A stretch of 7,008 bases of DNA from an archaeon (GTDB lineage: Archaea > Asgardarchaeota > Thorarchaeia > Thorarchaeales > Thorarchaeaceae), in assembly GCA_024275415.1 (NCBI GenBank), contig JAJRZD010000083.1, positions 1-7,008 of the forward strand, in the 5' to 3' direction. The notes below the pieces were generated by a model, which did not search any database, was not told where the DNA came from, and saw only the letters and a list, made by a program, of their open reading frames with translations. Below are positions 5,448 through 7,008 of this stretch, one piece after another (position 1 is the stretch's first letter; each line of letters starts with the position of its first letter). The translations under genes were made by a program, and so were the position numbers.

Positions 5448-6338
5448 TTGACGGGTCGACTGCAGATTCAAGAGTTCATGGTAATCAAGGCTGGTGGGAT
5501 ACCCATCTATCACTATTCAGTAGGTAACAGGCGAAAGCTGGACGAGCTGCTATCGGGCTTTCTTTCGGCAATAACAAGCTTTGCATCCGAGTTTGGAGAA
5601 CGATACGTCCAAAGCCTTTCCTTCGAGGGCTCGGAGATCATGTATGAGCAAGGAGAAGATGGAATCCTCTTCATCGTACTTGTCGATAGTACTGCTCCTC
5701 GAAAAGTCCTCCGAATGGTATTGCGTGAACTCAGTCGCAAGTTCCAACTACAATATTCTAAGGAGATCCGTCTTGAGATCTCACTGAGTGACGCATTTGA
5801 TGGGTTCACCCAAGAAGTCGAAAGAGCGTTCTCCTATTATGAGAACATCCTGCGAGTGACCTCGAACTTGAGCCCCTTTATTGTCCCCAAGATAAAAAGA
5901 CGGACGCTTGACATTGCCATTCAGTCTAACAGTCTTCTTGATGATTTCCACAGGGACTTTGGAACCGCTGGCACTCGAATTCTTGAGGCAATTGACGGGA
6001 AAAGGCCAGTTATCAGACTTAGCAGCGAGTTGGGTCTGGAGTTAGAAGAAACGAACGAGATAATCGAGTATCTGGTGATATGGGGTGTCGTTTCAATATA
6101 CAGGCTTTGTCCAAAGCTGCAAGAGAATGATTCACGCTTTGATGCATACCTCGATATCATCGGACTTCCAACAAAGGACTATCAGCTACTGAACCGAGCG
6201 AAGGCGTTATGCAATGGCCGGCGTTCCATCGTGGAAATCAGTGAACGCTTGAATGTGACCAATGAGACCTTGTACGACCTGTTGCTCAAACTTGGTGATC
6301 AGGTCGAGTGGTTGTATGTCCCGATTGAGGAGCTATAA
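5448..6338 (+). CDS. Longin-domain protein with two C-terminal HTH repeats, NPRL2/Npr2-like architecture (296 aa)
   Basis: Residues ~6-130 have the longin pattern: 'FMVIKAGGIPIYHYS' beta-hairpin, 'DELLSGFLSAITSFASE' helix, three strands, two helices. Two repeats (~146-217 and ~221-288) share P-K...(D/N)G(K/R)R-x-h-x-x-h-S-x-x-L. TTG start with AGGAG RBS; alignment to the downstream paralog begins at residue 7, supporting this start. Confidence 0.8.
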   Translation: MTGRLQIQEFMVIKAGGIPIYHYSVGNRRKLDELLSGFLSAITSFASEFGERYVQSLSFEGSEIMYEQGEDGILFIVLVDSTAPRKVLRMVLRELSRKFQLQYSKEIRLEISLSDAFDGFTQEVERAFSYYENILRVTSNLSPFIVPKIKRRTLDIAIQSNSLLDDFHRDFGTAGTRILEAIDGKRPVIRLSSELGLELEETNEIIEYLVIWGVVSIYRLCPKLQENDSRFDAYLDIIGLPTKDYQLLNRAKALCNGRRSIVEISERLNVTNETLYDLLLKLGDQVEWLYVPIEEL

Positions 6339-6416: not shown

Positions 6417-7008
6417 GTGGTAAAAGAGATCATCATCCTACGAGAAACCGGTATTCCCTTGTTCCATTATAGCGTAAGCGGGGAACGGAAGCTGGACGAC
6501 TTGGTGGCAGGGTTTCTATCAGCACTAGGTTCCTTTGTAGAGCAGATCAGCGCCCAACAGCTCAAGGTCATGTCATTTGAAACAAACAAGTTCGTGTGGG
6601 AGAAGAAAGGCGACCTTTTCTTCATTGCCCTCATTGCAAGAGATGATAGTGCAGAGATATACCGCGCTATCCTTCAAACCCTTTCGGATCAATTCGTGAG
6701 CAGGTTCTACGATATCCTGAGGAATGATTTGACCCACCCGCGTGAGTTCATGGAGTTCACTGATATTGTTGAGATGGTTCTGCAGAAGTTTGATGGCATC
6801 CCTGGACTCGCAAGAAGGTACAAGACCGGATTGCTTCCGTTACATACCCTTCGCTCTCTAAAGATGGCTCTTGCTGAAGTAGAGTCACGAGATGAGATCC
6901 TGCGAGGTGCACTGGTCACCTTTGATGGTCATATATTGACTTCTAATCTGCGAGCTTATGAAATCGAAGCGCTCCTCGACCATCTAGAACATTCTGATTT
7001 TCCTGAAG
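6417..7008 (+). CDS. Longin-domain protein followed by a probable Roadblock/LC7-type domain; 3'-truncated by the window edge; not in the supplied ORF track
   Basis: Hand translation from GTG 6417 is open for 197 codons to the window end: MVKEIIILRETGIPLFHYSVSGERKLDDLVAGFLSALGSFVEQISAQQLKVMSFETNKFVWEKKGDLFFIALIARDDSAEIYRAILQTLSDQFVSRFYDILRNDLTHPREFMEFTDIVEMVLQKFDGIPGLARRYKTGLLPLHTLRSLKMALAEVESRDEILRGALVTFDGHILTSNLRAYEIEALLDHLEHSDFPE. An in-frame upstream stop (TGA 6384-6386) makes this the first start. 'ILRGALVTFDGHILTSN' fits the Roadblock beta1-beta2 motif (h-x-h-h-x-x-D-G-x-h-h-x-S). Confidence 0.85.
   Translation, partial: MVKEIIILRETGIPLFHYSVSGERKLDDLVAGFLSALGSFVEQISAQQLKVMSFETNKFVWEKKGDLFFIALIARDDSAEIYRAILQTLSDQFVSRFYDILRNDLTHPREFMEFTDIVEMVLQKFDGIPGLARRYKTGLLPLHTLRSLKMALAEVESRDEILRGALVTFDGHILTSNLRAYEIEALLDHLEHSDFPE

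Follow-up and report, generated by a model that had tools for sequence, protein, structure and literature searches.

Positions 5448 to 6338 of a Thorarchaeal contig encode a protein that, in its predicted structure, is a structural homolog of NPRL2/NPRL3, the core of GATOR1/SEACIT. Gene order and phyletic pattern both link its gene, and that of a longer paralog, tightly to a gene for a MinD-type ATPase. The resemblance to NPRL2/3 sits in the winged-helix C-terminal module and in the overall architecture, and not in a GAP-competent longin site. In GATOR1, which senses amino acids and acts as a brake on mTORC1, NPRL2 and NPRL3 make up the catalytic core.

The window, i.e., the whole stretch of DNA that was analysed, is a complete 7,008-bp contig (C64) of a 3.5-Mb assembly of Thorarchaeota type that is 92.9% complete. 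The gene under study (hereafter, the short gene) lies on the forward strand and is an ORF of 296 codons with a TTG start and a stop codon at 6336-6338. A TATA-like ACCTTAAAT (5402-5410) and an AGGAG (5434-5438) are located on the same strand ~40 nt and 9 nt, respectively, 5′ of the TTG, and the region 5402-5438 was read from the sequence as a putative promoter and ribosome-binding region. In an alignment, ACCTTAAA was also present in L003 and L039. The TTG start is credible, since the homologs start at the same codon, with either ATG or TTG, and both the AGGAG and the TATA-like box precede it. The database holds 246 homologs of the short protein with 54-76% identity, nearly all of them "hypothetical proteins" of Candidatus Thorarchaeota, and a 30-sequence alignment of the family (A1) has a mean column identity of 61%. 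The reverse strand carries, in divergent orientation to the short gene, the gene of a polytopic membrane protein that ends in a helix-hairpin-helix (HhH) domain (3733-5445; HHH_5, E 1.2e-9). Its first-ATG ORF (570 aa) leaves only 2 nt between the start codons of both genes; its homologs, however, are annotated with 531 aa, and translation probably begins ~35 codons downstream of that ATG.

The AF2 model of the short protein, built from alignment A1 (pLDDT 84.4, pTM 0.79), consists of an N-terminal longin domain (residues 1-139, positions 5448-5864), with strands at residues 7-13, 19-24, 55-59, 62-68 and 74-80 and helices at 30-49, 85-102 and 120-139, which is followed by a linker with a strand (145-149) and two helices (151-181) and a first winged helix (188-224; linker and winged helix together, 5865-6119), and then by linker helices that carry the conserved 'RFDAYLDIIGLP' (229-251) and by a second winged helix (255-292; together, 6120-6335). 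A sequence-only reading of this DNA had proposed an NPRL2/Npr2-like protein with a longin domain and repeated helix-turn-helix units; the ORF list and the model bear out the longin domain, the two winged helices and all the motifs quoted in it. In the structural search that it suggested, the top 13 Foldseek matches of the whole model were GATOR1/SEACIT NPRL2/3 chains, which supports the proposed identity. With the C-terminal half alone, the best structural matches were again NPRL2/NPRL3 chains, above all the DNA-binding winged helix-turn-helix (wHTH) proteins. The longin domain alone was structurally closer to SNARE-type longins than to NPRL2. The short protein combines an N-terminal longin domain with a following C-terminal domain of NPRL2/3-type winged helices.

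At the sequence level the relationship was much fainter. No match of the short protein to PF06218 (NPR2) was found at E <= 1 in a single-sequence Pfam scan, and the single-sequence Pfam and NCBIfam scans gave neither NPR2 nor NPR3, but only sub-threshold longin and generic wHTH matches. PF06218 was also missing from the 25 most frequent Pfam families listed for 30 short-family homologs, and a six-frame search of the genome with this profile had its best matches (E 0.22 and 0.345) at unrelated loci and nothing at 5448-6338. Below threshold, PF24064 (HTH_NPRL3, the NPRL3 C-terminal helix-turn-helix) matched 5 of the 30 family members, with a best E of 3.4e-4. A phmmer search of the PDB sequences aligned residues 154-220 of the short protein with residues 172-238 of NPRL2 (6ces_N) at E 0.92, a match that the short-family profile improved to E 0.063; the first winged helix and NPRL2 168-238 share 24-33% identity. 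The proposed comparison with PF06218 thus failed at threshold, and what remained is a sub-threshold NPRL2 signal (E 0.063; 9.5e-4 by hhalign, see below).

An NPRL2 alignment (A5) was then seeded with the NPRL2 fragment of the profile match, and it retrieved real NPRL2 sequences, which matched the segments of human NPRL2 that the sequence-only reading had quoted. The resulting profile contains vertebrate sequences only (Neff 1.4), and this limits the sensitivity of hhalign. With it, residues 171-219 of the short family (A1) aligned with NPRL2 189-237 (33% identity, E 9.5e-4, probability 22%), and the winged helix, linker and second winged helix of the long-paralog family (A4) aligned with NPRL2 284-365 (E 1.2e-3), so that 'KLFPIMGERDSRF...KYCTGGFSIREISEKS' was paired with 'KYPVRVSREERS' of NPRL2. 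The matches of both paralog families are co-linear with the structural alignments, and they are weak because both profiles are shallow (Neff 1.4-2.6). Of the earlier claim that two segments of the protein align with NPRL2, co-linearity has stood, one segment directly in the short family and the other one via the long family, but the alignments are far from strong. When the longin domains alone were compared with that of NPRL2, hhalign gave no signal (E 0.5-0.6).

A profile search of 1.84 billion representatives returned 632 matches, and 20 of them, taken from the top 150, were scanned by Pfam; no eukaryotic NPR2 was present among these 20, all of which were archaeal longin-winged-helix or multi-winged-helix proteins. 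Many archaeal proteins of 370-920 aa (P0270, P0276, P0294, P0303, P0323 and P0365) carry 3-5 tandem winged helices of the 'ILEAIDG' type, a sequence pattern suggestive of a repeat family, large and so far without a name, with kinship to the winged helix of NPRL2/3, and PF24064 was found below threshold in another multi-winged-helix representative (P0278). In addition, the genome of the window encodes on contig C127 two proteins with the same C-terminal winged-helix module (69827-70807, reverse strand, 326 aa; 72649-73551, reverse strand, 300 aa), which match the short-family profile with E 1.6e-7 and 4e-11 and have no N-terminal longin domain by Pfam. From their sequences, these two may form a further pair within this superfamily.

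The catalytic residue of NPRL2, Arg78, is on a loop of the longin domain (PMC8534245), and in alignment A5 it lies within 'KKYSRN', between two strands. Since hhalign gave no signal with the longin domains alone, a residue-level mapping by sequence was impossible, and Arg78 was assigned to the beta4-beta5 loop by longin topology, not by residue-level superposition. In this loop (residues 67-73, 'EQGEDG') no Arg was present in any of the 30 short-family sequences, and the loop is acidic and variable, in agreement with the earlier remark that the arginine finger has no obvious counterpart there. The long family carries in the same loop a basic pair, W-E-[R/K]-K-G-D, with R in 14 and K in 11 sequences at position 63, and K in 27 and R in 2 at position 64. 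With its acidic and variable loop, as against the basic pair kept by the long paralog, the short protein most likely has the non-catalytic, structural (NPRL3-like) role of the two. A second feature of GAP-type longins is a GP motif before beta2, which is present in NPRL2 and absent in NPRL3 (PMC12290439). In the short family G17 and P19 are invariant, but they are one residue apart (GG[VI]P), versus LGPK in NPRL2.

The long paralog starts downstream of the short gene on the same strand (6417-7007), where the first 197 codons of a protein of ~431 aa, which begins with a longin domain, run off the contig; this portion is 79% identical to the N-terminus of P0121. The last 141 nt of the window (6868-7008) recur without a mismatch as the first 141 nt of contig C14, which belongs to the same assembly, and hence both contigs join and the long gene is complete in the genome. 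On C14 the frame goes on into an insert and then into the same two winged helices as in the short protein, the first of them of the 'ILRAIDG' type, joined by an 'RDxRFxAYLEVIGIPK' linker. For a close relative (L003), BLASTP aligned the 430-aa long neighbour with the short protein over the longin domain (31% identity, E 4e-22) and the C-terminal half (35%, E 2e-21), and the long protein has an insert of ~150 aa relative to the short one. The insert had no Pfam match in 18 members and no match among the PDB sequences, and the sole outcome of an Atlas feature search was a lead (0.76) to a Robl_LC7 cluster; from its sequence pattern, the insert may be roadblock-like. The short and long genes have consecutive locus tags in seven MAGs and are two tags apart in an eighth.

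The complex of a short and a long protein of the same genome was predicted with the author's own alignments, and it scored 0.48, the best of three controls being 0.02, which was graded as "weak support". Of 80 solved complexes 58 attained the mark for this grade, as did 2 of 110 mismatched pairs; with scores <= 0.60, only 7 of the 80 solved complexes attained it, and so did both passing mismatches. At least 68% of the contacts agreed between runs, and the partner pLDDT was at least 76. Since the NPRL2-NPRL3 complex is already solved, the pass may reflect likeness to it.

The third gene is on C14 (817-1587), where a 256-aa MinD/ParA-like protein is encoded immediately after the long gene, its start overlapping the stop of the latter, and is followed by a 148-aa ORF. 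Its best PDB match is MinD-1 (1hyq, E 5.9e-14), and by sequence it is a genuine MinD-family protein, with a deviant Walker A motif, 'HSFRGGTGKSN', in which Arg replaces the signature Lys in 21 of 21 MinD orthologs. The MinD-class ATPase, and not a Rag GTPase, is the sole conserved NTPase partner in the gene neighbourhood: no small-GTPase-like ORF was found in 22 loci with a single Gtr1/RagA-like query, which is a weak test.

The gene order was analysed in 20 neighbourhoods across genera plus two further loci, one of which was a duplicate, so that 21 distinct loci were compared, 17 of them from the family of the window (f1). The order short-long-MinD was observed in 13 of these 17 loci; in two loci, both of one genus (g13), the short gene is next to MinD without the long gene, and in another two, of genus g6, the long-MinD unit is displaced from the short gene. 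All four loci of family f2 and of f12, which by NCBI names is Hermodarchaeota, have long-MinD without a short gene. The divergent HhH membrane protein gene is beside the short gene in 17/17 distinct f1 loci, and the protein was also weakly matched (E 1e-13 to 1e-15) beside the long gene in three Hermodarchaeota loci. All 17 distinct f1 loci also keep, near the module and mostly separated from it by mtd, the gene of a 310-aa protein (1886-2818 of the window, forward strand) with a TackOD1 zinc-ribbon output domain (E 3.1e-15). The N-terminus of this protein, 'MFAIWWDDALGPLVGRVW', resembles a longin/roadblock-type domain of small size in which the 'GP' turn is a true one, and the protein may be of the class that the accessible text of Liu et al. 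describes as NPRL2-like longin fused to signalling domains. The forward strand of the window also encodes a papain-like, peptidase C39-like protein (120-647, E 4.6e-12) and, right after it, a 313-aa protein (664-1605) that had no match among the Pfam and NCBIfam families.

When co-occurrence was analysed in a sample of 300 genomes of the phylum (NPRL-like genes at E <= 1e-20, MinD ortholog at E <= 1e-55), NPRL-like genes were found in 62/76 genomes of f1, 1/1 of f2 and 18/19 of f12, and in none of 27 other families, and the MinD ortholog in 63/76, 1/1 and 17/19 genomes, respectively, and in the single genome of f28; 12 genomes of f1 had neither. The phyletic patterns of NPRL-like and MinD genes nearly coincide, although these counts are descriptive and are not a statistic, since kin are not independent. 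The f28 genome (G240), which is outside the Thor and Hermod lineages, has an ortholog-level match to the Arg-variant MinD (contig C77, 4511-5221; E 8.3e-72) and no NPRL-like match at E <= 1e-20. In genus g13 either gene was present in only 7-8 of 14 genomes. A complete 2.58-Mb genome of this genus (L005/L037) has MinD directly after the short gene and no long paralog at E <= 1e-20, and there the MinD match covers only residues 2-165, in a frame of 208 aa, perhaps a sign that the module is decaying. As g13 has short and MinD genes without a long paralog at this threshold, the short-long heterodimer is not obligatory everywhere.

A rooted tree of both families was built with other archaeal longin-winged-helix proteins as the outgroup; two of the intended outgroups fell inside the long family. 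The short and long families are each other's closest relatives among the archaeal longin-winged-helix families (100/97), and they therefore probably duplicated independently of the NPRL2/NPRL3 split. The short clade is monophyletic on a long stem (100/100), and Thor-long, Hermod-long and short form an open fork, in which the support for joining short to the one long protein of f2 is only 93/74. Because the short family was found only in f1 and is nested in the range of the long one, we infer a lineage-specific duplication, which is parallel and not orthologous to that of NPRL2 and NPRL3.

The explanation that we favour, at about even confidence, is that the short protein is the non-catalytic partner of the long one in an NPRL2/3-like heterodimer that serves the Arg-variant MinD ATPase. 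The two proteins would pair longin-to-longin and winged-helix-to-winged-helix, like NPRL2 and NPRL3, and the dimer would act as a regulator or adaptor of the ATPase (an activator, a nucleotide-state sensor or a membrane/cargo adaptor), possibly together with the divergently encoded HhH membrane protein, and not as a stand-alone Rag GAP. Gene linkage among short, long and MinD is not interaction. We know of no solved longin or roadblock protein that regulates a SIMIBI/MinD-class ATPase, and the literature searches likewise gave none. A bolder extension, possible but held only tentatively, is that the original role of the NPRL2/NPRL3 architecture was not that of a GAP for small GTPases: a Thor/Hermod longin/winged-helix homodimer, and later the short/long heterodimer, would have been the dedicated partner of the Arg-variant MinD-class (SIMIBI) ATPase, perhaps with a basic "finger" from the W-E-[R/K]-K-G-D loop of the long protein and with the ATPase tethered to the HhH membrane protein. 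It would then be the first SIMIBI ATPase under longin regulation, and the core fold of GATOR1 would have had a pre-eukaryotic function.

The main competitor, which we consider unlikely, is a proto-GATOR1: by itself or together with its paralog, the short protein would serve small GTPases of the Rag/Gtr or Arf kind, encoded elsewhere, as their GAP or as a platform, MinD being unrelated or only loosely coupled. The NPRL2/3-type fold and architecture of the short protein would fit this role, as would the basic pair of the long paralog in the Arg78-equivalent loop, and it is established that dimers of longin proteins act on small GTPases as GAPs and GEFs (PMC8534245; PMC12290439); moreover, the genome of the window has Gtr1/RagA-like GTPases of its own, e.g., two in tandem on contig C100 (E 3.7e-10 and 2e-9). 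However, the short protein has no Arg in the equivalent loop, the one query used detected no small-GTPase-like ORF in the 22 loci, and NPRL-like genes are confined to two or three families, whereas Rag-like GTPases are widespread in Asgard according to the accessible text of Liu et al. Their pattern instead tracks that of the MinD ortholog almost genome for genome.

A role in transcription, with a longin/roadblock-type sensor and DNA-binding winged helix-turn-helix domains controlling the neighbouring genes, is improbable. Against DNA binding stands the acidity of the short protein (pI 5.04 overall, 4.5 for the second winged helix), and, by composition only, its would-be recognition helices are acidic or hydrophobic and a basic DNA-binding helix or wing is lacking. 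Besides, its Pfam matches are mostly below the cut-offs, in structure the NPRL2/3 C-terminal domains, which mediate protein contacts (PMC8534245), outrank all the DNA-binding wHTH proteins, and a tandem paralog with linkage to MinD is atypical of a simple regulator. Least probable of all is a peptide-binding scaffold of the RRE/PqqD-like kind, with winged helices that would bind a peptide or the tail of a protein. If, as we favour, the pair regulates the MinD ATPase, the reach of longin-dimer regulators would go beyond TRAFAC small GTPases and take in SIMIBI ATPases, and the three proteins would form an expressible system for asking what that core did before eukaryotes.

The family itself is not new, since Asgard members are already published. 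The accessible text of Liu et al. (bioRxiv 10.1101/2020.10.19.343400, later Nature 2021) reports an "NPRL2-like" family, with a longin domain plus a small C-terminal domain of NPRL2 type, in most Thor MAGs, in line with the mention of Asgard genome surveys in the sequence-only reading, and both the architecture of the short protein and the 62/76 genomes of the window's family with NPRL-like genes agree with that description. "NPRL2-like longin domain" is also an asCOG category (PMC9834061). The same text of Liu et al. is without the tandem pair, the MinD operon, the Arg-for-Lys Walker A motif and the missing arginine finger, and in full-text literature searches no paper connected longin proteins of Asgard with MinD, nor, beyond Liu et al., did any deal with Thorarchaeota and GATOR1. 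What is added here is the winged-helix-based likeness, the short/long pair that parallels NPRL2/NPRL3, and the Arg-variant MinD-class partner.

Among the known systems, the closest one is NPRL2-NPRL3 (Npr2-Npr3 in yeast), the core of GATOR1/SEACIT and a GAP for RagA/Gtr1 (PMC8534245). The short protein shares with it the order N-terminal longin, linker and winged-helix C-terminal domain, and the Thorarchaeal paralogs, like NPRL2 and NPRL3, comprise a short member and one with a large middle insert. Unlike NPRL2, which has three units, the short protein has two winged helices, in keeping with the extra unit that had been noted for NPRL2; it also lacks a Pfam NPR2 match and an equivalent of Arg78, its turn is G-x-P and not G-P, and the operon partner of the pair is a MinD-type ATPase and not a Rag GTPase. 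FLCN-FNIP2, C9orf72-SMCR8 and the Heimdallarchaeial FLCN/SMCR8-type longins (PMC12290439) are likewise dimeric longin platforms on P-loop NTPases, and they share with the short protein a conserved glycine/proline turn before beta2. They have, however, DENN domains, a true GP motif and an arginine finger, where the short protein has winged helices, G-x-P and no arginine finger. In the MinD-MinE and ParA-ParB systems, as here, the gene of a MinD-family ATPase is beside those of small partners, which include helix-turn-helix-type domains, and by analogy this arrangement suggests an ATPase switch regulated by its partners. The activators that we know of, MinE and ParB, are not longin proteins. The ATPase of the Thorarchaeal module differs from MinD and ParA by its Arg for the signature Lys, and the winged helices of the short protein, unlike the DNA-binding ParB or SegB, are acidic.
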